Source: a virus (lineage: Duplodnaviria; Caudoviricetes). From it: a DNA stretch of 58,919 nucleotides. Under the pieces are notes generated by a model, which worked only from the letters and a program-made list of their open reading frames with translations, searched no databases and had not been told where the DNA came from. Shown here piece by piece: positions 7,041 to 53,842 of this stretch; position 1 is the first letter of the stretch, and the number at the start of each line of letters is the position of its first letter. The DNA lies in the IMG/VR virus record IMGVR_UViG_3300034283_003118, positions 1 through 58,919 of that record. One strand, given 5' to 3'. Position numbers and translations under genes: made by a program.

Positions 7041-7921
7041 TTACTTAGACCAACTATTTCCCCACAGATCCACATGCAGTCGAGGACTGTAGTAGTAACC
7101 ACGACGCATGGCTTCTTCAGCAATATTGAACTTGTTTCCGTTGTAGATAACATCCACACCACCCACTGGCATCACATAAACAGGTCCCACGAAACCAGCA
7201 GCACGATATTCTGCCACTGCTTGATCAGCTTCAGCAAAATGTTCAGGAGAATCCACTACGAACTTCAGATAAGCAAATCCGTAATTTTCATAGGAAGCCA
7301 CAACGTCAGGTTTGATAGCATCACTCCAACTCTCACCACTTGCGCTGAGTTTGGGACTTACGCTAAACGTGAAACACGAGTCGCCTTCAAACTGACCAGT
7401 GATAAACCTGCCCAAGTCCTGATGAATTTTTTGTGTACCGTTGGTTTCAAAAGTCACATTGCGTAATCCATGCGTGTTTTCATTGTCCAAAATCGCAGGG
7501 TACATACTCTGCCAGCCCAGCAAAGGTTCACCGCCTGTGATCACCAAATGTACATCGTTGCCATTGGGTTGAATCCATGTGTTATTGGGTAACAGTTCGT
7601 TGAACCGCTCTCGCAATTGTTCTATTGAGTAATCTGGGCTGAGGTGGCGGAATTCTGGGTAGATACTGGCATAAGTATCACAACCAGTACTAACCAGTGG
7701 CAAGTCATCAAACACTTTAAACTGATCAATATTTTTGATAACATCGGCTACTTCGGGATTATACTTGTCAGTTACTGGAGTACTGCACCCAAATGACTTG
7801 CAACGAAAATTGCATCCAAAAGTTCGCATGAAGATGCTGGGCACTCCAACGTATCGGCCTTCACCTTGTAGACTAAAAAAAAAAAAATTTCCGAGACCTT
7901 AATAGTTCGGTTATTACGCAT
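7041..7921 (-). CDS. queE: 7-carboxy-7-deazaguanine synthase (radical SAM), frameshifted by a T13 tract near the 5' end
   Basis: KVSEIF..SLQGEG, RTFGCNFRC...CDT, ITGGEPLL, ETNGT, VSPKL, SPRLH; AAAGGA SD before ATG 7921. Confidence 0.9.
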
Positions 7922-7964
7922 ATTAAATTTTTTCCTTTAGTTATGTTTCTGCTTACTATAATAA

Positions 7965-8372
7965 TTATAGCAAATTTTTAAGTTCTAAAAATTTTTTTTC
8001 ATCCAAAATTACATACAAATCTTGGACCAAATGCCATTCGTATATATTGATGTTTTTGATTTTACCAGTCTTAACATGTTGACATTTGAACAGATATTTT
8101 TTGTTACCTAGCGACAAATGCACATTTTTGTCAAACTGATCTTGTGGGACCTGTGATCGAATCCCTGTTTGTTTATTGATTATATTGATCTTACCAGCAC
8201 AAGGTCCAGCGTAACGTTCTTTGTTGTTTAGAACTTGATCTCTTGAAATTTGTACATATTGACCGGTTGACTTATCTAAAACTGTAGTGAGATTTTTAGT
8301 AACTCCCACATATCTTACCCCATCAAAAGGTGAAGGAGAATTTTTAATAAGAACGTCAAAAATGTTTAGTTG
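7965..8372 (-). pseudogene. Probable C-terminal remnant of a homing endonuclease
   Basis: AT-rich; RYVGVTKN/RYAGPCAG-type repeats; frame open to 8372 without a good start or catalytic domain. Confidence 0.45.
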
Positions 8373-8592
8373 TTAACAAAAGGCCTAGCAATAGTAGCAC
8401 AATGAAGAAAGCGTTTAGAAGATAAAGGCTGGGCTCGCGCATGCGCCACCCAGCCCAAATCCATCCTATACTACCCAGTATGCCCACTAGTTTGTTTAAC
8501 GGAGTAACATCAAACGCAGTAAGTGTGACACCCACCGCAGTGAGAATAGTACCTAACCATTTAACATAGTTGTCTAGTTGGCTTTGTTTCAT
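8356..8592 (-). CDS. Small three-TM membrane protein, possibly PnuC/half-transporter-like
   Basis: Three hydrophobic segments; lies between queD and queE. Confidence 0.6.
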   Translation of the reverse strand: MKQSQLDNYVKWLGTILTAVGVTLTAFDVTPLNKLVGILGSIGWIWAGWRMREPSLYLLNAFFIVLLLLGLLLTTKHF

Positions 8593-8593
8593 A

Positions 8594-9019
8594 TCACACC
8601 GTTACAGTGGCTTTGCACTTGCGTGTTTCTTCAATGTCCACAGCAATCAATCTCACACCAGTGTCCTTCAGTTGTTCCGGGCCCACTGTTTCAATCAGAT
8701 ACTGTCCCATGTTTTCAGCTGTAGGATTAAACGGCACAATCACGGTGCCCTGAGGGTCCAGTTTCTTGAGTTCCAGACTCCAGGGATCCTGTTGCCACAC
8801 AAGGAACTTGTGATCCCACTGTAGTTCTAGCCATTCACACAGATAATTTTTGATTGCAGAGAAATCCATTACCCGGCCCACTGTGTCCAATTTATCAGCT
8901 TCCACTGTGAAGTGGATACGATAGTTGTGGCCATGTAAGTGGGCGCATTTGGATTCATGGCCATATACTCGATGGCCGGTGGAAAAGTCGTGATAACGAC
9001 TTGCAGTAATTTTAGGCAT
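8594..9019 (-). CDS. queD: 6-carboxytetrahydropterin synthase
   Basis: GHR...CAHLHGHNY (CxxxHGH), MDF, WDH, PTAEN, EET. Confidence 0.92.
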   Translation of the reverse strand: MPKITASRYHDFSTGHRVYGHESKCAHLHGHNYRIHFTVEADKLDTVGRVMDFSAIKNYLCEWLELQWDHKFLVWQQDPWSLELKKLDPQGTVIVPFNPTAENMGQYLIETVGPEQLKDTGVRLIAVDIEETRKCKATVTV

Positions 9020-10682: not shown

Positions 10683-11864
10683 ATGCGATTCACGGAATTT
10701 TTAGCTGAACTCAGACGAAAAGAAAAACAAAAGTCACCTGAGCCCAAATATCAGGAACTGGGTCACCCTGCTGCTATTGAATATCTCAAAGGCCGTGACC
10801 TCAGCAAATACGTGATAACTATGACTGATTTGCCCAAAGTGGGTGTTAACCCCGGATCCACATATAACACTCCCCTGGGCATCTATTTCTATCCAGCCGA
10901 TTATTATGTGGTCGTGCGAGGCAGAGTGCCTTTTCAAGCTGATGCCAACTACATCAATATTCTGCAATTGACAACCAATAAAATCTTATATCTGAATCAA
11001 ATGGATACAACCTCAATGACTGCTGCGCTCGATAAACTCAAACAGTTGCCCGCAGTTAAAAACCTTTCAGCTGATCAAAATATTGATCGGCTGATCAAAG
11101 ATGCAGATCATAAGGCCAGAAAAAAATCAGAGCCAGGAAAATTTTGGTATGTGTTGTGGAAACTGAGTAACCTGCTAGCTGCACACAACTACAAATATGC
11201 TGATGAACAAGCTCATAGTGTGTGGAATTCCTTGTTCAGGCAACTGGGGTACGACGTAGTCATTGATCAGGGCGAAAGCATCATTCACGAAAATGAACCC
11301 AATCAGGGTTTTATAGTCAATCCACGCGGCACATATCGTTTGGAAAAAACCATCAACAATGTTGGCAGACACACATTGACTAAGAAAAAACTAGGATACG
11401 AAGAAAATTCATTAATTAAATCAGCATACAACAATAGTCAGAGAGAAGAGGCCCATCTAAAACTGGTGAACCAAGATCCATATTTGATTAGCAAAATGAA
11501 AAACCCCAGCGAGCAAGTGCAAATTATGGCAGTATCCAAAGTTGGTGCATTGCTGAGAGATTTACTGCGAAAGAAAAAAATTGTTGTAAGTGAAAAAGTT
11601 GTACTGGCTGCATTGAACAATGATCCAGAAGCGATTCGATTTTTTTATGATCCGAAAATTAACGTACACAAAATTGTACCTACTAGAGAAATGATCCTGC
11701 GTTCTGTGAACGAAGCCGGCTATCTGATTAGGTTTATTCCCAACCCCGATACAGAATTACAGATGGCTGCGGTTAAAAACGATTTCCATTCCTACCTGTG
11801 GATCGAAGATCCTGACCCAGCAGTAACTGAACTGTATAACAAGCTGAAGTCTCAAAGCAAGTAA
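10683..11864 (+). CDS. Leader-bearing protein with a possible ART-like domain and C-terminal DUF4116-like repeats
   Basis: MRFTEFLAE; TPLGIYFYP, LGYDVVID..HENEPNQ; NPSEQVQIMAV repeats; TAAATA 5 nt upstream. Confidence 0.6.
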   Translation: MRFTEFLAELRRKEKQKSPEPKYQELGHPAAIEYLKGRDLSKYVITMTDLPKVGVNPGSTYNTPLGIYFYPADYYVVVRGRVPFQADANYINILQLTTNKILYLNQMDTTSMTAALDKLKQLPAVKNLSADQNIDRLIKDADHKARKKSEPGKFWYVLWKLSNLLAAHNYKYADEQAHSVWNSLFRQLGYDVVIDQGESIIHENEPNQGFIVNPRGTYRLEKTINNVGRHTLTKKKLGYEENSLIKSAYNNSQREEAHLKLVNQDPYLISKMKNPSEQVQIMAVSKVGALLRDLLRKKKIVVSEKVVLAALNNDPEAIRFFYDPKINVHKIVPTREMILRSVNEAGYLIRFIPNPDTELQMAAVKNDFHSYLWIEDPDPAVTELYNKLKSQSK

Positions 11865-16601: not shown

Positions 16602-16645
16602 TGGGTGCCTCCTTCCAGCATACTAGATGTCATAAATGTTCATTG

Positions 16646-19476: not shown

Positions 19477-20466
19477 TTATCTGGCACTGAACAGTGAGCT
19501 AAATGCGTTGATCTGTGGGTTGGTCGCTGTTTGTAAGTCCCAGTCCAGAACACCCAATAGGTTATCTATCTTGGTGTCCACGATGGTTTCTTCCATGAGA
19601 CCCTGGTCAAACGGTAGCTCTTTGAACCACTCGGGTAATCTGAGTTCGTCAATGGGATACGCCACACTGGTATAGTTCATGGGGTTACTGCGCAGCTTAC
19701 ACACGACCACTTTCATGCCGTCCACAATGCCCATGCTGTAACGATCATTGTGGATCTGCTTGAGGGTGTTCCAGTTTAGAGCAGCTCTGACGTGTCCAGG
19801 CACTGTGACTTTGCCTTTCTTACTGATAAGATCTCGATAATGAGTGAGATTGTTTACTCGCTTGGGTGTGCCTTTTTCCCAAGCAGGTCTTGATTGAAAA
19901 TCAGTTTTAAATCTGCGTATGTCATCGATGATTTCTGCACGTTCTAATCCTTTGAGAACTTTCAGCAAAATGTCACTTAGAAACTGTTGCACGACTTTGG
20001 GAGTATCGGCTCGTTTGAGATCCAAGCCCATGGCCTTGAGTTTGCCATCACTTCCGTCAGTATCCAGCCTCTTGCCTTCTAGATCATAGATCAACACAGC
20101 GTAACGCTTCTTGGTGATATATAAACCCTTGCTAGCCACCAGTTCGCGACCACAACGAATAAGATCACCATTGGCACTGGGTGTGTGAAATGCACCTGCA
20201 CAAAAACCAGAGAAACTGTCGTTTACTTGATCTGCGATTGCGTCATACAGACCCACACAGATGTTTTTATCCCATTCCATGGAGCCAGCAGTCACCTCCT
20301 TTTTCACAACGGGCCAAGCACTGAAATAGCAACTGTTGTGCACCAAAATGTTATTGGCAAAAAAATAAGGATTTTCGTTTGAAACACCAATATCATAAAC
20401 ATATTCGTCGTCATACGGCTCAAGTTCTTCTATTGATTCAATCTCTGCTAATTGGTATTCCACCAT
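19477..20466 (-). CDS. Family B DNA polymerase, C-terminal part, preceded by the C-intein
   Basis: ILVHN|SCYF, KKRYA, KAMGLDLKRADTP; AGGAG SD before ATG 20466. Confidence 0.92.
   Translation of the reverse strand: MVEYQLAEIESIEELEPYDDEYVYDIGVSNENPYFFANNILVHNSCYFSAWPVVKKEVTAGSMEWDKNICVGLYDAIADQVNDSFSGFCAGAFHTPSANGDLIRCGRELVASKGLYITKKRYAVLIYDLEGKRLDTDGSDGKLKAMGLDLKRADTPKVVQQFLSDILLKVLKGLERAEIIDDIRRFKTDFQSRPAWEKGTPKRVNNLTHYRDLISKKGKVTVPGHVRAALNWNTLKQIHNDRYSMGIVDGMKVVVCKLRSNPMNYTSVAYPIDELRLPEWFKELPFDQGLMEETIVDTKIDNLLGVLDWDLQTATNPQINAFSSLFSAR
20335..20466 (-). mobile_element. Split intein, C-part (44 aa)
   Basis: VYDIGV...FFANNILVHN followed by Ser+1. Confidence 0.9.
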
Positions 20467-21404
20467 TGCACACACTCCTGTATAATTCCATCTGGTTTGT
20501 TTATGTAATCACTTTCCCATACTATTTTAACACTAAAGTCTCTGTTTAATGCAGTTTTTATTTTTTCAAAATCATAACTCCAAATTTCTTTAGCTGTTAA
20601 ATTTGAATGCTTGTGAATAAAATCGCCCGAATACATCAATGGATTACAATGCCAATAATCTCCGTTAAACTCAATGATTTTCTTTTTTGATGAACAAGTA
20701 ATATCGTAAAAATAGATTCTATGATTTGCTTTATCCCAAATTGAAAATTGTTTAGTAAATGAAGTATATTTTATCTCAGATCCTAACGCAGTTTGAAACG
20801 CATTAACAAAATGTTTCTCTGATTTACTACAAATTGATGGTGTTCTTCTTTGAGACAATATTTCAATAGCCGCATCATCATCAACTGAAAACTTCTCTTT
20901 AATCCAATCAACATTTGATGACTTTGATTTTTCTTCGTTGTAATTGAGCCATTTTTCTTTTCCTTCGGATCCATACTTTTCAATGAAATATTCTAAAGTA
21001 TTAGTATACCGTTGCTGCTCAACATACGAGTTCCAAATCTCTACCCCTTGTACGCCATGTCGTTTTACGCAGTTTTCCAACGTAACTGACCGACTTTTGT
21101 TATAATCGTCAAACTGTTCTTTACTCCATCCATATTTTTTATTTTTGTATTCAAAACTATTGGTTTCAGCTTGCTTGCTTCTGTAATGTTCCCATTTTTG
21201 AGTACCTAACTCTTGTCCGTACTTTTGGATCATTGTTTGTTTGGTTATTTTACATTTAGCAGCTAACTCTTCGTCAATTAAGATTGAATTGGGGTATTTG
21301 TTTTTGTATTCATCTATGCTTGAAATACCCCCAGTGCATTTGTATTTGAAGTGGGTCCATTGTAGCCTGGGCATAATGCACCCACATTCTAAGCATTTTG
21401 GCAT
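20448..21404 (-). mobile_element. Free-standing Vsr/EDxHD-like homing endonuclease between the intein halves
   Basis: CLEC..H, KYG repeats, SKSE, YD, IIEFNGDYWH, IVWESD; own TAAATA (21431-21436) and an SD hairpin. Confidence 0.85.
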
Positions 21405-21429
21405 ATTGCGATACTCCTATCCGCATAAG

Positions 21430-23613
21430 TTATTTATGCTTGATAGTGAGAATCTTTTCGCCTTTTTTAAGTTCCATAGGACTTTTTTCAACTAATTTAC
21501 CGTCTTCCAAAACAATCATTGCATGATCTTCAGTTACAATGAGTTCGTTACCCAGAGAATCGATCACTTTAAATCGACGCTTTTTTGTTTTGTGACGATA
21601 AACATAGTTATAATTTCCCATCTTAGCTGGGCCAGAAACTTTATTATCGTAAACCACGACTTGAATATCAGGATTTACGGAATACTCTTTATCTCCATCT
21701 TTCCAAAATGTCGTACCATTATGGAAAAGTTCTTCAATGGTTTTGTTACCTACTGAAGTGTTAATACAGCTACTCCCATCAACCGAGTCAGTATCGGCGT
21801 AAATGATAGCTTCACCTGTGTGATCGTAGTCACCAGTAACACACTGATTCACATAAGCATTCATGTGTCGTGCAATTACTCTGCCACTCAGTGTGGTACT
21901 TTGACCTATGCGTTTGTCATTGAATCGACAATAGGGATTCAAAATAGCACCGTATAAGCTGTTGAGGTTAATCTTCTTAACCAGTTGGCGTTTGTCCCAA
22001 AACGCCTGATCTTCTTTGTCTGTGGCTTCTTTCTTTTTCTTTTGCAGTTCTTTACGTTCAGTATACCAACGTCTCAGCAGTCCCGGAACAATACCCTCTC
22101 TTTCAGCAGTGAGAATAGTGCCATTGGCAGTGAGAATCCAGGGGCGATTTTCTGCCCAGATCAGATGATGCAACTGTGCAGCACTCATCTCAGTACTGGT
22201 GCCATTTTCCCATTCCACAGTGATTGTGTAAGCAGGATCCTTATTGATTACTGCCGTGTATTCCAGAGTACCAAACAGGCCTTCCCAGGCTGCTGCGAAA
22301 CTCAAATCTTCTGCACGTTTTTTCGCAATGTAGTTGTCGGTACCAGTCAAACGTATCTGCCCCACGATGGTTTCTGGACCCATGTTTAGAGCGCGAATAG
22401 TATTGGGATACAGCGAGTTCAAGTCAATTGCACCAATATAATCATGCAGTCCTTTCTTGGGGTAGGCCACATAAGCACCAGCAGCACCCTCATCCTCATC
22501 TTCGCCGTCATCTTCTCGGTCACGAGGTTGCGCCTTGCGATCCGGAACAACTAACCCACGATCGTGACTTTCGTTGATAATGGCTTGTTCAGTAACAGCC
22601 ACAGCACCCATTGTGGTGGGAATCAACACTGTGTTATCATGTGCCAGTTCGTTAGCCAGATCGATAAAACGCAATTTCTGATCCAGACGAGCAATCAGCA
22701 TCACATCCTGGCGATTGTATTCGATAAACCGTTCAAAGTTCAGATTGTATAACTGATCCAGTGTGCCTTCATAGTGAGTTTTGTGTTCGCCCTGTTCATG
22801 TTCGCTGATGGCATCCAGGCTATAGCTGTGGCGTTCCTCATAAGTGTATTTGCGATACAACTGCATGTAATCCAGATGTAATCGTCCGATCAGATCATAA
22901 GTGGATTGCTGAGCACCATACCGTTCAAACTTGCGCTGCTTGGGATGCTGATCCCACAAACACAGGCGGCGTGTGTCATCTTTGCTCATTATAGTGATGA
23001 TGCGATTCACAGTGTAGGGAATATCATACCCTTCGCTGTTCCAGCCACTGAGCACATCTGCATCCTGGATAATATCCAGGAACGTACTCAGCATCTCTGT
23101 TTCGTCATTGAACAAAAACGTATTGTCGAAATTCTTCACCAGAGCCTGCGCCTGATCCATAGTGAGTGTGGACGGAGGCATAGCCAGTGTGATCAGCTGA
23201 TCACACCAATCCAGGTACACAGTGATTGCTGTGATTGCTGAGAACGGATCTTCAGGACTACTAAATCCGCGTTCAGCGTCAAATGCAGTCTCGATATCGA
23301 AAAAGGCCGTGTGTAACTTGGGAGCCAATTTGTGTCGATAGTGTTCTTCCAGACAGCGAAACACTGGGTTAATATCACTTTCCCAGGTTCTGAGATGACT
23401 ATGAGCTCTGAGTTCACGATTGAACTCCTTGTACTGTCTGGTTACAAATCTACTCACTGGTGTTTCATAAATTGTGCGATGTTTTCCTTTGCTGTCGTCA
23501 TAATAAAACACATACTTGGCAGGCCAATCAGTAAAAATTCGCTTGCCGTCGATGCGTTCTACTACATGAATTGTGTCAGAATTTTTATTCCAGATTGCGT
23601 CAACGTAACTCAT
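21430..23613 (-). CDS. Family B DNA polymerase, N-terminal part, fused to the N-intein
   Basis: DIET, WNSEGYD, YNRQD, DLNSLYP, KINLNSLYG, YADTD|S. Confidence 0.95.
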   Translation of the reverse strand: MSYVDAIWNKNSDTIHVVERIDGKRIFTDWPAKYVFYYDDSKGKHRTIYETPVSRFVTRQYKEFNRELRAHSHLRTWESDINPVFRCLEEHYRHKLAPKLHTAFFDIETAFDAERGFSSPEDPFSAITAITVYLDWCDQLITLAMPPSTLTMDQAQALVKNFDNTFLFNDETEMLSTFLDIIQDADVLSGWNSEGYDIPYTVNRIITIMSKDDTRRLCLWDQHPKQRKFERYGAQQSTYDLIGRLHLDYMQLYRKYTYEERHSYSLDAISEHEQGEHKTHYEGTLDQLYNLNFERFIEYNRQDVMLIARLDQKLRFIDLANELAHDNTVLIPTTMGAVAVTEQAIINESHDRGLVVPDRKAQPRDREDDGEDEDEGAAGAYVAYPKKGLHDYIGAIDLNSLYPNTIRALNMGPETIVGQIRLTGTDNYIAKKRAEDLSFAAAWEGLFGTLEYTAVINKDPAYTITVEWENGTSTEMSAAQLHHLIWAENRPWILTANGTILTAEREGIVPGLLRRWYTERKELQKKKKEATDKEDQAFWDKRQLVKKINLNSLYGAILNPYCRFNDKRIGQSTTLSGRVIARHMNAYVNQCVTGDYDHTGEAIIYADTDSVDGSSCINTSVGNKTIEELFHNGTTFWKDGDKEYSVNPDIQVVVYDNKVSGPAKMGNYNYVYRHKTKKRRFKVIDSLGNELIVTEDHAMIVLEDGKLVEKSPMELKKGEKILTIKHK
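21433..21786 (-). mobile_element. Split intein, N-part (118 aa, Ser1)
   Basis: Starts SVDGSS after YADTD; block B VTEDH; basic C-terminus then stop. Confidence 0.9.
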
Positions 23614-24023: not shown

Positions 24024-25448
24024 TTACTTTTTTGTGTTGTGAGACTGAATCATGTTACGAGCCACCTGAACAGCTTCAGCACGAGTAAATGCAGGATTTT
24101 CCAGAACCTTGGTTAGGATCCTGTCCTTGATCTGGGCAATCAAGGGGCCTTTTGCTCCCAGTTCCATGATCTCGGTTCCATTCAGTATGCTCTGAGTTTT
24201 CAGAATATCGTTAACATCCATCTGCTGAATCTTCTCTCTGATGCGAGCAATTTGATCGGGCATGCTGGCTGCTTCTGAATGCGAAACATTGTCGGCATGC
24301 ATCACGTCCAGGAGATCTTCCAGGTTATGACCCACACGGAAAATAAACTTTCTCAGTGTGCTGTCTTTGAGCTGACTAGCATCTGCCCCTGCACTCTTGA
24401 GATCCATGTGATACTTAACAATGTCACTTACTTTGTTAATTAGATCATTGGGATACTTCAATCTGCGCATCACAGTTTTGGCAATTTCAGAACCCACCTG
24501 AGCATGTCCAATAAATTGGATCTTGCCATTCTTTTCTGTGCGAGTAGCAGCCTTGCCGATGTCGTGAAACAGTGCGCCCAATCGCTTGATCAAATCAGGA
24601 CTGCTGGCATCCAGCACATCCAGTGTGTGTCCCCAGGCGTCTTTAGAATGATAGGCGTTTTGCTTGAGCCGAACCAGCTGGCTGAGTTCGGGCATGACTA
24701 CATCCAATATACCAGTAATCTTAAACAGTTTGAAAGCTCTGCTGGGACGGTTTAACAACAAGATTTTGCTGAGCTCATCGTTGATGCGTTCATTACTGAT
24801 GTTCTTTAGATCACCAGCAAACTTTTTGATGTTTCGGATCATGTGCATGGGCAGCTTGAAGTTGTACTTGATTGCAAAACGCACAGCCCTCAAGATGCGC
24901 AGCGGATCTTCACCAAATATCACAGCAGGATCACCAGTTGTATCTAGCATCTTTTGCTCTAAGTCTTTGCGACCTCTGCCGCTCATGTCCAGTATTTCGC
25001 CAGTGTGCAGATTTTGCAGCAGACTGTTCACAGTGAAATCACGCCGCATCACATCATCTTTAAGTTCACCTGCGGCAACTTCAGGCTTGCGACTGCCTGG
25101 TGTGTATTTTTCTTTGCGCGGTGCCACAAACTCTACGTCAATTTTTCCGCTGGGAGTGGGCACAGTGAGTTTGGCAGTGAAGTAAGTGGGAAAGATCACT
25201 GGATTGCTGTCTGGTTTGTAAACACCCAGCTTTTTGGCGATGAACTCAGCAGCAGCCAATCCGCTGCGGGCATCGCCATCGACGACGAAGTCAACATCTT
25301 TAGAATCACGTCCCAGCAGGGTGTCTCGCACATAACCACCGGCCATGTACAGCTTGCCTTCGTAAGGTGATCCAGTGGTGGCATTGCGGATGATGTCTAG
25401 CACTTCTTCAGCTTGTTTGCTTTCTGTGATCAGTTGTTTTATTGTCAT
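24024..25448 (-). CDS. cca: Class II CCA-adding tRNA nucleotidyltransferase with HD domain
   Basis: GGYVRD, KDVD, RRDFTVN, EDPLRILRAVRF, ERI, HDIGK; MTIKQLITE leader. Confidence 0.9.
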   Translation of the reverse strand: MTIKQLITESKQAEEVLDIIRNATTGSPYEGKLYMAGGYVRDTLLGRDSKDVDFVVDGDARSGLAAAEFIAKKLGVYKPDSNPVIFPTYFTAKLTVPTPSGKIDVEFVAPRKEKYTPGSRKPEVAAGELKDDVMRRDFTVNSLLQNLHTGEILDMSGRGRKDLEQKMLDTTGDPAVIFGEDPLRILRAVRFAIKYNFKLPMHMIRNIKKFAGDLKNISNERINDELSKILLLNRPSRAFKLFKITGILDVVMPELSQLVRLKQNAYHSKDAWGHTLDVLDASSPDLIKRLGALFHDIGKAATRTEKNGKIQFIGHAQVGSEIAKTVMRRLKYPNDLINKVSDIVKYHMDLKSAGADASQLKDSTLRKFIFRVGHNLEDLLDVMHADNVSHSEAASMPDQIARIREKIQQMDVNDILKTQSILNGTEIMELGAKGPLIAQIKDRILTKVLENPAFTRAEAVQVARNMIQSHNTKK

Positions 25449-27989: not shown

Positions 27990-28781
27990 ATGAGAGTTAG
28001 CGTACTTTTACCCACACGTGGCAGAACACATACTCTATTGAGCAGTGTTCAGAATCTTTTAAGCAAGGCCAGTGAACCAGAATTAGTAGAAATTTTGCTG
28101 GCCATGGATAACGACGACATCCAAAGTGTAGCCTTTGCTCGCGACGAAATCCAAGCTCTTTATCCAGATAACATTCACATCTATCAGATGCAACCTCTGG
28201 GTTATCAAAAACTCAATGTCTATTACAACACATTGGCTGGTTTGGCCTGGGGTCAGTGGCTCATGGTGTGGAACGATGATGCTTTGATAGACACAGCGGG
28301 TTGGGATTTGGTCTTGGACCGCTATCTGGATCATCCCATGCCCTTGCTCAGAATGCCCTGTAGTAACTTTGAACACCCTTTTGCTCTGTTTCCCATCATA
28401 CGCAAAGAGTGGTTCAATGTTTGCGGATTTTTCAGCTATTACACTCACATAGATCGTTTTCTATACAATGTTGCTCAAAATATTGCAGGAAACATCATAG
28501 TGGATATTCCAGTCACAGTTACTCATGATCGTGCAGATCTAACTGGCAATAACCGAGATCAGACTTTTGAAAACAGTTATAAAAGTCACGATCATGGAAA
28601 TCCGCAAGATCCCAACAGTGACGAATATGTAGTTGCATTGCAGGTGGTAATGCATATGGTAAATCGGTTAAGCGTGCATATTAATACAAAATATGGTTAT
28701 CAGATCCCCTTGATTGATCAGACCAAGCCCATGGAGATTCGCAAAACCATGGCAAACAGTCACAACCACAAAAACATCTAG
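27990..28781 (+). CDS. GT-A/GT2 glycosyltransferase
   Basis: SVLLPTRGR, DNDD, WNDD. Confidence 0.8.
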   Translation: MRVSVLLPTRGRTHTLLSSVQNLLSKASEPELVEILLAMDNDDIQSVAFARDEIQALYPDNIHIYQMQPLGYQKLNVYYNTLAGLAWGQWLMVWNDDALIDTAGWDLVLDRYLDHPMPLLRMPCSNFEHPFALFPIIRKEWFNVCGFFSYYTHIDRFLYNVAQNIAGNIIVDIPVTVTHDRADLTGNNRDQTFENSYKSHDHGNPQDPNSDEYVVALQVVMHMVNRLSVHINTKYGYQIPLIDQTKPMEIRKTMANSHNHKNI

Positions 28782-28808
28782 TTTCAATTTTTACTCAAAG
28801 GATATATT

Positions 28809-29759
28809 ATGAAAATTTTTATCACAGGACACGACGGTTTTATTGGGCAACATCTGGTGGCGAGGCTGCAAGACAAACATGAATTGTGTTTTTTAGAACA
28901 TGATCTCAGAGATCACGCAAGCACCAGTGCGCAGATTCGTCAGTTTAATCCAGAAGTTATTGTTCACCTGGCTGCTCGAACTGAAGTTGAAAAAAGCTTC
29001 TATGAACAAATTGCATTCAGTGAGATCAATTATGTAGGCACAGTAAACCTGATTGAAACAGCCAGAGACCTGCCCAATTTCAAGAACTTTGTTTTTGCCA
29101 GCACCATGGAAGTATATGGGTGGCAACCCATTAGTGATTTGATTGAGCATGGCCAGGAAGAAGGCATCATTGCTTTTGATGAAACCACTCCGCCCAATCC
29201 CAATGCACCATATGCTGTGGCCAAGTATGCTTGTGAAAAATATCTGGAATATGCTCATCGCAGTTATCAGTTACCATTTACTGCTATTCGTCAGACCAAT
29301 GCATATGGCAGAAAAGACAACAATTTCTTTGTTACCGAACAAATCATTTACCAAATGCTAACCAATGATAAAGAAATCAATTTGGGTTATGGTGAACCCT
29401 ATCGTAACTTTATCTATATTGATGATTTGTTGGATGCTTGGGAATCAGTGATTGAAAATCCAGAAAAATGTGCTGGTGAGATTTTTTGTATTGGCCCAAA
29501 TAATGCTATCAAAATTAAAGACTATGTGCAGATGATCGCTGACAAACTTGGCTGGAATGGCGCAGTAAACTGGAACACCAAGCCCAAGCGTGCTGGTGAA
29601 ATTTATCTACTCAACAGCGTCAATGACAAAATCACCGCCAAATTGGGTTGGTATCCCAAAGTGGATTTGAATGAAGGACTGGACCGAACCATTGGCTTTT
29701 GGAAAGCTATTGTTCACAACAATACAGAATTCAACAAGAGAAAAAAGTTTACACTATAA
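28809..29759 (+). CDS. NAD-dependent NDP-sugar epimerase/dehydratase
   Basis: ITGHDGFIG, HLAA, YAVAK, RNFIYIDD. Confidence 0.92.
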   Translation: MKIFITGHDGFIGQHLVARLQDKHELCFLEHDLRDHASTSAQIRQFNPEVIVHLAARTEVEKSFYEQIAFSEINYVGTVNLIETARDLPNFKNFVFASTMEVYGWQPISDLIEHGQEEGIIAFDETTPPNPNAPYAVAKYACEKYLEYAHRSYQLPFTAIRQTNAYGRKDNNFFVTEQIIYQMLTNDKEINLGYGEPYRNFIYIDDLLDAWESVIENPEKCAGEIFCIGPNNAIKIKDYVQMIADKLGWNGAVNWNTKPKRAGEIYLLNSVNDKITAKLGWYPKVDLNEGLDRTIGFWKAIVHNNTEFNKRKKFTL

Positions 29760-52373: not shown

Positions 52374-52598
52374 CTAGCTCCATCTCAATGCAAACATGGT
52401 AGCGTATTGTTCATTATCAGTGCTTATGAACCATTCTTTGCGGCTACTTATTCCTTACCAGTCTATCCACCATGATTGTTTATCAGCAAAATTTTCACAA
52501 CACCATTCAGAAACTTCACCCAGCTTGCCTTCCCAACTGTATGCATCAAATTTTACAATTTGGTGTTTGTGCCTTATATTAGGCACTTTACTCGGCAT
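52374..52598 (-). pseudogene. Paralog of 52191..52367 with an in-frame TAA (52455-52457)
   Basis: ..EWC..WIDW*GISSRKEW..NEQYATMFALRWS. Confidence 0.65.
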
Positions 52599-53175
52599 CG
52601 TCTGATTCATCGTCTTCGTACTCCTCAATCTCCCAAATCTCATCATCTTCGGTCTCATCATACAAACGATAGTATTGTTCGTAAGGGTTCAAAATTCGCA
52701 TGGCATAAGATGGTAAAGTTAGTGTCAGCAGCGTTATATCCGTATCCTTGTAGAATTCACTGATATAAAAGTTGTTGCCGCAAATGCCTTTAACCAGCAG
52801 GATCTTGCCCTGTTTGAGCTGATGATTTTCAACGGCTCGATTCACACTGTCTGCATACAAGGCGCCATACAAAACTCTGATGGGCGGTTTTTTATACTTG
52901 AGACGAGCAATGTCATTAGAGGTAGGTTTGGTAATTGTTGCACAATTATCTTGATCAATACGCAACACACATTTGCGAATTTTGATGCTGCCCTTGGTGT
53001 GATTGGAGTCAGGTGTTTCTTTTGTGCTCCAGGGCATTTCGCAAGAGACGTGGTTAACATAATAAGAACGCCCACGTGCCTTGATGGTCCACATTGGGAT
53101 AGTTGGGTCTTCTAAATGTTTCTTGTTGAAATGAAAAATCAGGTCATTTGCAAGTAGTTCGGTAATCTACGTCAT
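52588..53175 (-). CDS. Hypothetical protein with an in-frame TAG at codon 3
   Basis: AGGAG-N6-ATG ACG TAG ATT...; frame stays open into ORF 52588..53094. Confidence 0.65.
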
Positions 53176-53176
53176 A

Positions 53177-53374
53177 TTATTCTCCTAGTATATCAAAAAT
53201 GTTAGCGTATTGATATTTATCAATTTTTAACCCTTCCCAAGACCATTCAAATACTGTTCGTTTATAACACCATTCTAACCACACACGCTTTTTAGAAATA
53301 GTAGTGACAGGGTACCATGCGAACCATTTATTCCATTCAGTTACACAGCCATGATAGCTTGATAAATCATACAT
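53177..53374 (-). CDS. Small Trp-rich hypothetical protein
   Basis: KWFAWYPV..VWLE. Confidence 0.65.
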   Translation of the reverse strand: MYDLSSYHGCVTEWNKWFAWYPVTTISKKRVWLEWCYKRTVFEWSWEGLKIDKYQYANIFDILGE

Positions 53375-53383
53375 AAAAATAGT

Positions 53384-53457
53384 TGGTGCGCCCGGTGGGA
53401 CTCGAACCCACGTCCCGGGGTTTTAGAGGCCCTGCTACACCCTACAGCTTCGGGCGC
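53384..53457 (-). tRNA. Atypical tRNA, best read with anticodon CUA (amber suppressor)
   Basis: GCGCCCG/CGGGCGC acceptor stem, GUGGG-UUCGAGU-CCCAC T arm, encoded CCA, loop CUCUAAA. Confidence 0.75.
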
Positions 53458-53467
53458 ACTTTAAATT

Positions 53468-53842
53468 TTATTGCCAATCCAGTGGCAAAATCAAGTTGGG
53501 AGGCGGAGCATGAAACAAAGCTCGGATATAAGCCTCAGGATAATCAGCTAGCCCGCAACCCACTTTGGTCAGCAAAAACGTCAATTGAGGATTTTGGTAA
53601 CAAAACTCGTACAGCTTGATTACGGATGCTGCAAGTTCCTCCCAAGTGAGTTGATCCAACCTTCCGTTAAGTGTGGGGAAAGCATAACACTGTCCGGTTA
53701 ACCCCTTGCCTACTCCCAACTCAGCACCCCATTGGCGATGTGCCTGCAGGGCGGCGCCTGCACCATGCCGCCCTGCCGTATTGGAACCGAACACAAAGAT
53801 TTCGTTCGGTTCCAGCTGAGTGATTACTTCAGCTTGAGGCAT
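53468..53842 (-). CDS. Macro-domain-like phage protein (A1S_2505-type)
   Basis: IFVFGSNTAGRHGAGAA, YAFPT, TKVGCGLA. Confidence 0.75.
   Translation of the reverse strand: MPQAEVITQLEPNEIFVFGSNTAGRHGAGAALQAHRQWGAELGVGKGLTGQCYAFPTLNGRLDQLTWEELAASVIKLYEFCYQNPQLTFLLTKVGCGLADYPEAYIRALFHAPPPNLILPLDWQ

Follow-up and report, generated by a model that had tools for sequence, protein, structure and literature searches.

Anatomy of the locus

We describe here a phage gene that carries the amber stop codon TAG as its third codon and lies shortly downstream of a tRNA gene with the matching anticodon CUA, both on the minus strand of IMG/VR record IMGVR_UViG_3300034283_003118. The record is a single contig of 58,919 bp, a fragment of a large lake-water phage genome, which was analysed over its entire length and is referred to below as the window. 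An earlier note, made from the sequence alone, had pointed to a CCA-ending tRNA with the anticodon loop C-U-CUA-A-A and, about 200 bp downstream, to the succession AGGAG-N6-ATG-ACG-TAG with 192 open codons behind it. Both elements were borne out (Table 1), the tRNA by ARAGORN and by the Rfam model RF00005, and the distance between them is about 208 nt on the same strand. A start codon, a few sense codons and a stop standing ahead of a long open frame are henceforth called a gate.

Table 1. Features of the region around the tRNA and the gated gene, in the order of transcription.
Feature	Position	Strand	Evidence or remark
A1S_2505-family phage non-structural protein (phrog_2072)	53468–53842	−	ends 10 nt before the tRNA
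Promoter-like hexamer pair TTGATT-18-TAAAAT	53465–53494	−	consensus match only, just upstream of the tRNA
Amber suppressor tRNA gene	53384–53457	−	ARAGORN (single tRNA of the window), Rfam RF00005, sequence
Anticodon CUA	53424–53426	−	sequence
Encoded 3' CCA	53384–53386	−	sequence
65-codon open reading frame between tRNA and gated gene	53177–53374	−	weak phrog_14828 match, E 1.7e-4
Shine-Dalgarno box AGGAG	53182–53186	−	six-base spacer to ATG
Gate: ATG (53175–53173), ACG, TAG (53169–53167)	53167–53175	−	sequence
Full gated gene: M-T-UAG, 192 sense codons, TAA (52590–52588)	52588–53175	−	sequence, translation
N-terminal FHFNKKH domain, all-beta, residues 1–83 after the TAG	52918–53166	−	alignments, model
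C-terminal domain, residues 91–177, ferredoxin/ACT-like beta-alpha-beta-beta-alpha-beta	52636–52896	−	model, PDB structure search
Acidic C-terminal tail	52591–52635	−	low-confidence model, pLDDT <50 for residues 183–191

The only Shine-Dalgarno box of the gene serves the ATG two codons ahead of the TAG. Behind the TAG, no ATG, GTG or TTG occurs for 24 codons, the first being the Met codon at 53094. The public gene call starts at this Met (P0002, 168 aa, on 15 contigs), and the ESM Atlas entry for the protein begins only at residue 25. Upstream, the TAA of the 65-codon open reading frame (ORF) ends one base before the ATG of the gate. Since the tRNA is flanked by spacers of only 9–10 nt and all these genes share a strand, the tRNA, the 65-codon ORF and the gated gene look like one transcription unit, and no terminator-like site was seen on the minus strand between the tRNA and the gene. 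Promoter-like matches in the region were weak (7 sites vs 3.7 expected).

The gate is the only place in the window where an ATG with a Shine-Dalgarno match is followed within at most five codons by TAG and then by an open frame of at least 60 codons; the same scan of the window with TGA or TAA as the stop gave no site with a Shine-Dalgarno match. The TAGs at 16623 and 57040 were also considered as gates and rejected, as the genes downstream of them have a Shine-Dalgarno box and an ATG of their own.

The stretch from 52500 to 53500 (1001 bases), which includes both the TAG and the anticodon, was fully covered with no differences by contigs from all four lake-water sequencing runs that were compared (2020, 2023, 2024 and 2024). 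It is present in 20 lake-water runs, and the source sample may be among them. An IMG/VR contig (L001) is also identical to the window across the gated gene. With this agreement, the gate is not an assembly error.

The putative suppressor tRNA of the window

RF00005, the sole Rfam match in the window, aligns end to end (1–71) with positions 53387–53457 and scores 40.1 bits against a gathering score of 29. The tRNA has the acceptor stem GCGCCCG/CGGGCGC with discriminator A, and a seven-base anticodon loop with U33 and a purine at position 37. Two peculiarities noticed earlier, the swapped A8/U14 and a weak anticodon stem, are present in the sequence and in the RF00005 alignment, the stem consisting of three G-C pairs between an A.C and a C.A mismatch. 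The acceptor stem had also been called Arg-like, which gives no identity to the tRNA: no isoacceptor was closer than about 70%, the best isoacceptor-type averages being those of Thr (0.71), Val (0.70) and Met (0.70). When the tRNA was folded alone, its minimum-energy structure was not a cloverleaf (z = -2.0), an uninformative result.

ARAGORN labels the gene tRNA-Pyl. The tRNA-Pyl shape comprises a 6-bp anticodon stem, a 3-base variable loop, a small D loop without GG and no T-psi-C consensus. In the tRNA of the window, the D loop contains GGG, the T loop reads GTTCGAG, the variable region is about 5 bases long and the anticodon stem has three pairs. We rejected the identity: the label reflects the anticodon only. 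No pylS or pylBCD gene was named among the 64 window ORFs scanned against PHROGs, a scan not aimed at them.

A protein family that extends up to the stop codon

Read from the codon after the TAG, the protein has 1438 relatives at E up to 0.01 in a large protein collection, most of them 175–200 residues long and none recorded as having a Pfam domain. In alignments of 25 and of 76 members, the residues between the TAG and Met 53094 are the best conserved of the whole protein; in the larger alignment F11, H12, F13, N14, K15, H17, D20 and P24 are invariant, all of them upstream of this Met. Given that the 24 codons after the TAG encode the most conserved part of the family (the FHFNKKH motif), they must be translated. 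That homologs might start at the Met at 53094 had been raised in the earlier note as a point that would speak against the gate. They do not: homologs reach about 24 residues further upstream, the extension is conserved, and the Met is M25 of a nearly invariant IPMW motif in the interior of the family.

The N-terminal, FHFNKKH domain is what all members of the family have in common; 24 of its residues precede Met 53094. AlphaFold modelled it confidently when it was taken alone (pLDDT 94.6, pTM 0.82), and the model of the whole protein has a pLDDT of 87.4. The invariant residues ahead of the Met form the first long strand and the first helix of the modelled domain, which a start at 53094 would cut open.

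No family could be assigned to the protein with Pfam, PHROGs, NCBIfam or PADLOC at the thresholds used, and a Foldseek comparison of the whole model with the PDB gave no match with E <1e-3. The best PDB match of the C-terminal domain (2cve_A, Z 7.8, rmsd 2.2, 62 residues aligned) stands among many generic ACT/RRM-like matches. For the N-terminal domain no fold match was found (best Z 3.6 with 2cqa, rmsd 3.7, 65 aligned; best Foldseek E 0.48), and the ESM Atlas yielded no lead (best feature score 0.76, TM ≤0.32). Several ADP-ribosyltransferases, at Z 2.4–3.4 against the N-terminal domain, were treated as noise. Of longer, fused forms a single one turned up when they were looked for, P0122 (338 aa, PF05265).

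Conservation of the gate

Relatives were gathered in three samples that overlap. The first consisted of the best 14 and the best 80 of 358 IMG/VR matches to the window protein, the second of the best 80 of 383 matches to a short, one-domain member, and the third came from an unranked scan for the FHFNKKH motif (at most 80 loci of more than 117 matches). The first two samples, together with three loci from cultured phages, amount to 123 distinct loci. In 97 of them the conserved N-terminus is preceded by a gate, i.e. ATG, 1–4 codons and TAG, so that the TAG falls at codons 3–6, while the remaining 26 have an ordinary start. The leader of the sample-1 gates is Met plus a single residue in 60 of 64 cases (Ser 30, Ala 20, Thr 4, Lys 4, Gln 2). 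A purine-rich Shine-Dalgarno box precedes the ATG in most of these 64 (judged by eye, uncounted) and can also be seen in the logo of 89 gates. The unranked scan gave 72 distinct loci, 13 of which were judged to be chance motif matches in unrelated frames; among the other 59, all family members, 48 are gated by TAG, one is ambiguous (L307) and 10 are open (45 of the 48 were found by a scripted rule, which missed L239, L250 and L293 through an internal Met). Neither among the 123 distinct loci nor among the 59 of the unranked scan was there a gate with TAA or TGA, and hence none with a matching tRNA that would amount to codon–anticodon covariation.

Ungated relatives start with M-I-E-L..., their Met aligned at the position of the TAG, so the gate can be seen as two residues and a stop placed ahead of an otherwise complete protein. 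In a quick tree of the N-terminal domain, in which 60 of 115 inner branches are unresolved, gated genes are found in both halves (18/38 and 79/85) and the open two-domain forms appear as scattered single rows within gated groups, which suggests that the gate was lost repeatedly. Being common to relatives down to about 43% identity and to both halves of the tree, the gate is an old and stable arrangement, and the early stage of recoding that had been proposed as one reading of the locus is accordingly disfavoured.

Among cultured phages, Rhizobium phage RHph_I1_18 (L015) has an 82-codon copy with the TAG at codon 6, which ends 12 nt before a tRNA annotated as tRNA-Pyl(cta). Its GenBank record has no feature between the methyltransferase gene and this tRNA (10989–11249 region). 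Gated members thus expose a systematic annotation error: the protein of the window is called with 168 aa instead of 195, and the RHph_I1_18 copy is left out altogether.

Such gene calls, with their ORF of 168 residues from Met 53094, are what one would also expect if the gene were broken or wrongly assembled and the adjacent tRNA a coincidence. To this we give a virtually negligible probability, considering the identical DNA in the contigs of four runs and in IMG/VR, the invariant residues upstream of that Met, and the TAG itself, whose position is kept across relatives of 43–100% identity.

The sequence that follows the TAG bears on how the gate is passed. The next base is A in 81 of 89 distinct gates, compared with 13 of the 37 terminal TAGs in G003, a complete related genome of 360,683 bp. 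An A following UAG favours amber suppression, so this context fits suppression. The full codon, however, is ATT in 71 of the 89 gates and ATH in most, and AUU is a weak bacterial start. This counts against readthrough, as the ATG-NNN-TAG mini-ORF might simply load ribosomes that terminate and restart at AUU, the tRNA then being unrelated to the gene. A strong Shine-Dalgarno box with a mini-ORF also resembles coupling devices and the bar minigenes of phage lambda. Yet nothing in such coupling would call for TAG, which is the least used stop but the sole one in the gates. In 13 of the 64 sample-1 gates the next codon is GTA, GTT, ACT, AAC, AAA or AAG, all unusable as starts, and in none of the 64 is it ATG, GTG or TTG. 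The Ile encoded after the TAG is the second residue of the ungated homologs and is thereby explained by the protein, and the tight linkage to a CUA tRNA described below would be left without explanation. Termination followed by reinitiation is, we believe, quite improbable.

In two of the four lake-water runs compared (X7 and X20) a second contig of lower depth matches positions 53089–53139, i.e. 51 bases of the conserved motif region, with 2 differences, and a further gate stands in its unmatched continuation. The same lakes are therefore home to a related phage whose gated gene is of the one-domain type.

CUA tRNAs beside the gated genes

A CUA tRNA was found in 82 of the 97 gated loci within 2.5–4 kb on either side, by ARAGORN or by a scan with Rfam and a cloverleaf search of our own. 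With ARAGORN alone, such a tRNA was present in the flanks of 47 of the 64 gated sample-1 loci; 44 of these 47 lie upstream on the same strand, 97–3150 nt from the TAG. With both methods taken together, 101 loci have a CUA tRNA; ARAGORN overlooked it in 12 of them, and most of the overlooked tRNAs have only 3–4 anticodon-stem pairs. CUA tRNAs that escaped ARAGORN lie at loci L028, L032, L035, L044, L056, L068, L072, L087, L096, L134 and L170. In G003 a distance of 1 kb separates the CUA tRNA from the gate, whereas the 42 further tRNAs are clustered in an array 14–39 kb away.

The related CUA tRNAs make up one loose family. Their acceptor stem mostly begins with GCGC or GCGT, 38 of them have A as the discriminator and 10 have G, 48 of 51 encode the CCA and 41 of 51 share the loop CUCUAAA. 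None resembles any isoacceptor by more than about 70–80%. The anticodon stem is fully paired in only 24 of 99, so the weak stem of the window tRNA is typical; its A8/U14 is a minority form (3 of 51).

TAG in the rest of the genome

Of the three stops, TAG is the least used both in the window, where 6 of 88 greedy ORFs of at least 60 codons end in it against 59 in TAA and 23 in TGA, and in G003, where it ends 37 of 448 ORFs. The description of TAG as a rare but normal stop in the window was therefore accurate. Coverage by ORFs of at least 70 codons is 0.940 in the window under code 11 and rises to 0.969 with either TAG or TGA taken as sense; in G003 the values are 0.930 under code 11 and 0.931 with TAG as sense. 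Nor did TAG bring a greater gain than TGA in the flanks of related loci. A scan for gates in G003 returned two sites, namely the focal gene and, within the tRNA array, a weak case of 60 codons, so that the window and G003 have one strong gate each. The in-frame TAG scan suggested at the outset thus turned up no other strong gate and no coding gain from reading TAG as sense. Backup stops are not enriched after the terminal TAGs of G003, where the median distance to the next stop is 14 codons vs 7–8 after TAA and TGA. Neither the many in-frame TAGs nor the gain in coding density that characterize genetic code 15 were seen in the window or in G003.

The gate could still be the visible tip of a wider recoding, with TAG serving as sense in many late genes beyond the 59-kb contig. 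Published TAG-recoded phages do recode late genes and keep the standard code in replication genes, according to the relevant part of the preprint by Borges et al. (10.1101/2021.08.26.457843), and the PHROGs scan of the 64 window ORFs found no capsid, tail or terminase genes in the window. Against this stands G003, which has the same gate and tRNA and in which, as said, nothing but the focal gene is strongly gated and 37 ORFs end in TAG. In four of four near-complete relatives (342–382 kb) the terminase genes are open, with no internal stops, and so are the endolysin and the putative virion proteins of the window, the related flanks gaining no more from TAG than from TGA. We see little chance that recoding extends to the late genes.

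A separate observation concerns the plus strand at 27990–29759, where a glycosyltransferase-like ORF ends in a TAG (28779–28781) and a nucleotide-sugar epimerase (28809–29756) follows in frame, the nine intervening codons being free of stops. With this frame open, a suppressor tRNA would therefore yield some fusion protein; the arrangement may be due to chance.

A probable lock opened by the suppressor tRNA

The reading that we prefer, and consider probably correct, is that of a conserved amber lock on one gene, opened by a phage suppressor tRNA, as opposed to recoding of the whole genome or the beginnings of such recoding. The local, tRNA-dependent switch first suggested for this locus is supported, on strong comparative and purely computational grounds, by the gate in 97 of 123 loci, by the tRNA in 82 of the 97 and by the gate being single. 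From the arrangement of these elements we infer the following course of events. The ribosome would start at ATG 53175 behind the Shine-Dalgarno box, make Met-Thr and meet UAG at codon 3, where the phage tRNA(CUA), presumed to be expressed, processed and charged by a host enzyme, would compete with RF1. Termination by RF1 after two residues would make failure cost only a dipeptide, and reading of the UAG by the tRNA would give the 195-residue protein with its FHFNKKH domain. The amount of protein would in this way be coupled to the activity of the suppressor tRNA, as in an AND gate or a coherent feed-forward. Because the gate lies outside the conserved fold and ungated relatives have Met at the UAG position, the residue inserted is probably irrelevant and the UAG would be purely a lock.

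Besides the AUU codon discussed above, several points weigh against this reading. The window tRNA, with only three anticodon-stem pairs and the unusual A8/U14, may be inefficient. Nineteen of the 26 ungated loci also keep a CUA tRNA; opening the lock is thus not the only reason for its presence, and it may be the protein, not the codon, to which the tRNA is linked. Conversely, 15 of the 97 gated loci have no CUA tRNA in their flanks. Of four that were examined further, three could be resolved: two have a CUA tRNA in the same record, 8.5 and 52 kb from the gate, and in the third (L165:3717–3793) a tRNA lies 200 nt upstream of the gated gene with CUA in an eight-base anticodon loop (GCCCUAAC), for which ARAGORN reports a two-base anticodon. 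In the fourth, G007 (330 kb, 93% complete), ARAGORN, a pattern search and our own cloverleaf scan found no CUA tRNA; this contig breaks off within a tRNA array, 4 kb beyond the gate. The window itself is a partial genome, with replication and nucleotide-metabolism genes, and other TAG clients may exist in the unseen remainder. No RNA run was among the sequencing runs listed as containing the stretch. Finally, no function could be assigned to the protein, which makes the purpose of the lock a conjecture.

Function of the protein and the PTH2 neighbourhood

Some indication of what the protein does comes from its neighbours. Directly upstream of the one-domain forms (about 80–100 residues) lies a PTH2 peptidyl-tRNA hydrolase gene (PF01981) in 35 of 42 loci, and in one of them (L146) the stop of the PTH2 gene overlaps the start of the one-domain gene. 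In two cultured jumbo phages, Agrobacterium phage Atu_ph07 and Sinorhizobium phage Phosso, PTH2 is found two genes upstream. The two-domain forms, to which the window protein belongs, have a PTH2 neighbour in 3 of 81 loci. Positions of PTH2 genes are, for example, L146:3679–3996, L124:264–572 and about 2043–2378 in both L016 and L017. The adjacency of PTH2 to the short forms and the retention of the tRNA in ungated loci link the protein to translation, and we infer, as the weakest step of our argument, that it probably handles the consequences of UAG suppression or sets its level.

Taken further, this would change the purpose of the gate, the readthrough mechanism being as described above. The FHFNKKH protein may itself alter UAG decoding, by blocking RF1, limiting the suppressor or clearing ribosomes or peptidyl-tRNAs, and the UAG at codon 3 would then report the level of suppression to its own regulator. 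The gene does stay beside the CUA tRNA when ungated and has PTH2 as a neighbour in its short forms; with no client found other than the gate, the pair seems to refer to itself, and natural recoding sites in the genes of translation factors (prfB, infC) are autoregulatory. However, neither domain has a fold or family match that would tie it to RF1, the ribosome or a tRNA, and gene linkage alone is no proof of activity. A profile comparison of the C-terminal domain and two-domain family with PTH2 (hhalign) gave a probability of 0.4%, and no PTH2 structure is among the 50 PDB structure matches listed. The one hint that the C-terminal domain might be of PTH2 type is the complementary occurrence of PTH2 genes, which accompany the one-domain forms but hardly ever the two-domain forms. 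We regard such self-sensing as possible but rather doubtful.

An extension of the idea, which we offer tentatively, is that the tRNA(CUA), the FHFNKKH protein and, with the short forms, PTH2 make up a self-adjusting module for stop suppression. The phage would read through UAG stops with the tRNA, perhaps as a weapon directed at proteins of the host or of rival phages whose genes end in UAG. The FHFNKKH protein would free stalled ribosomes or peptidyl-tRNAs, or act on RF1, and its own UAG at codon 3 would make its dose follow suppressor activity. If true, this would be a natural circuit of feedback or dose coupling on a private codon, with a new fold in translation termination. The large unnamed domain, confidently modelled, with no fold match and linked to the tRNA and to PTH2, is a candidate new player in the control of translation during infection.

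Comparison with known systems

The closest known relatives of this arrangement are phages that read UAG with a tRNA of their own. TAG-to-Gln recoding in phages is well described, and in the crAss-like, Lak and other code 15 phages treated in the relevant sections of Borges et al. (bioRxiv 10.1101/2021.08.26.457843) the phage tRNA(CUA) overrides the UAG stop; there, expression of TAG-containing genes is proposed to await the tRNA, and suppressor tRNAs in standard-code relatives are supposed to be a first step. What the window shares with them is a phage-encoded tRNA(CUA) set against the UAG stop of the host. Those phages, as far as these sections describe them, carry in-frame TAGs by the tens to hundreds throughout their late genes, and under code 11 their coding density collapses. 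Here, in contrast, there is one gate TAG per genome (window and G003), at codons 3–6 of a single gene family and outside the fold, and the rest of the genome, including the terminase of relatives, uses TAG as a stop. If our reading is right, the stop codon is a private regulatory channel for one gene, kept over long evolutionary distances, and not a step to a new code.

Suppressor tRNAs are also known from phages with a standard code. The best named DNA match to the window tRNA is the tRNA-Sup of Xanthomonas phage XacN1 (88.5% over 51 nt), again a suppressor tRNA in a standard-code genome with few TAG stops. XacN1 has two CUA tRNAs, and in the part of the paper that deals with them (PMC5852040) the authors read through 18 amber stops and identify no target genes, whereas a target gene is identified here. 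No FHFNKKH gene was found in XacN1 at E up to 1e-5, so the client of its tRNA, if there is one, differs. The authors of the phiKp24 study left the purpose of their suppressor tRNA unexplained. Both studies thus left open what the clients of suppressor tRNAs in standard-code phages are, and the gated gene would be one concrete answer.

The same layout has been built on purpose. In an engineered leak dampener (Ho et al., Nucleic Acids Res 2021, PMC7969014), induction switches on a suppressor tRNA along with a gene whose start is immediately followed by an amber codon, and protein is made only when both RNA species are present. As the sections describing its design have it, that system uses supP (Leu) under separately controlled promoters; ours is natural and conserved. 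The position of the amber directly behind the start is shared, at codon 3 in the window and behind a Met-X leader in most gates. A common drive of the tRNA and the gene is suggested here by the short spacers and the shared strand only. The locus would be a natural counterpart of amber-gated synthetic circuits, and its conserved leader context (Shine-Dalgarno box, ATG, a Ser or Ala codon, then TAG and A) may be a ready-made efficient gate.

Two classical cases show other uses of early stops. The RF2 gene prfB has an in-frame UGA that is passed by a +1 frameshift and senses its own product. Its likeness lies in an early in-frame stop, conserved in our family, that may serve here too as a sensor of decoding; the difference is that a tRNA would read the UAG in frame here, in place of a frameshift at UGA. 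The bar minigenes of phage lambda are free-standing and consist of AUG-AUA-stop behind a strong Shine-Dalgarno box. They have in common with the gate the box, the start, one sense codon and the stop, and presumably also the products of failure, dipeptidyl-tRNAs for peptidyl-tRNA hydrolase, whose PTH2 type is a frequent neighbour in the FHFNKKH family. Unlike bar, the mini-frame here runs into a conserved ORF of 192 codons that lacks a separate start, and the stop is TAG alone. In the full texts that were searched (supplements excluded), no account came up of one conserved gene gated by TAG and coupled to the suppressor tRNA of a phage.

Gene content of the contig

Apart from the locus described, the window encodes a split family-B DNA polymerase, a clamp loader, rIIA, rIIB, a CCA-adding enzyme, QueD, QueE, PhoH, a Lon-like protease and an endolysin. 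The polymerase occupies two minus-strand ORFs, 21433–23613 (727 aa) and 19480–20475 (332 aa, the C-terminal part), between which lies a 318-aa ORF of unknown function with a TAG stop (phrog_22677, 20451–21404); the arrangement at 19480–23613 could be a split gene or the result of an inserted mobile element. The CCA-adding tRNA nucleotidyltransferase (24027–25448, minus strand) is present although the only tRNA of the contig has its CCA encoded. At 7044–9019 on the minus strand, QueE-like and QueD-like genes with an NAD synthetase-like gene nearby suggest 7-deazaguanine modification of the DNA.

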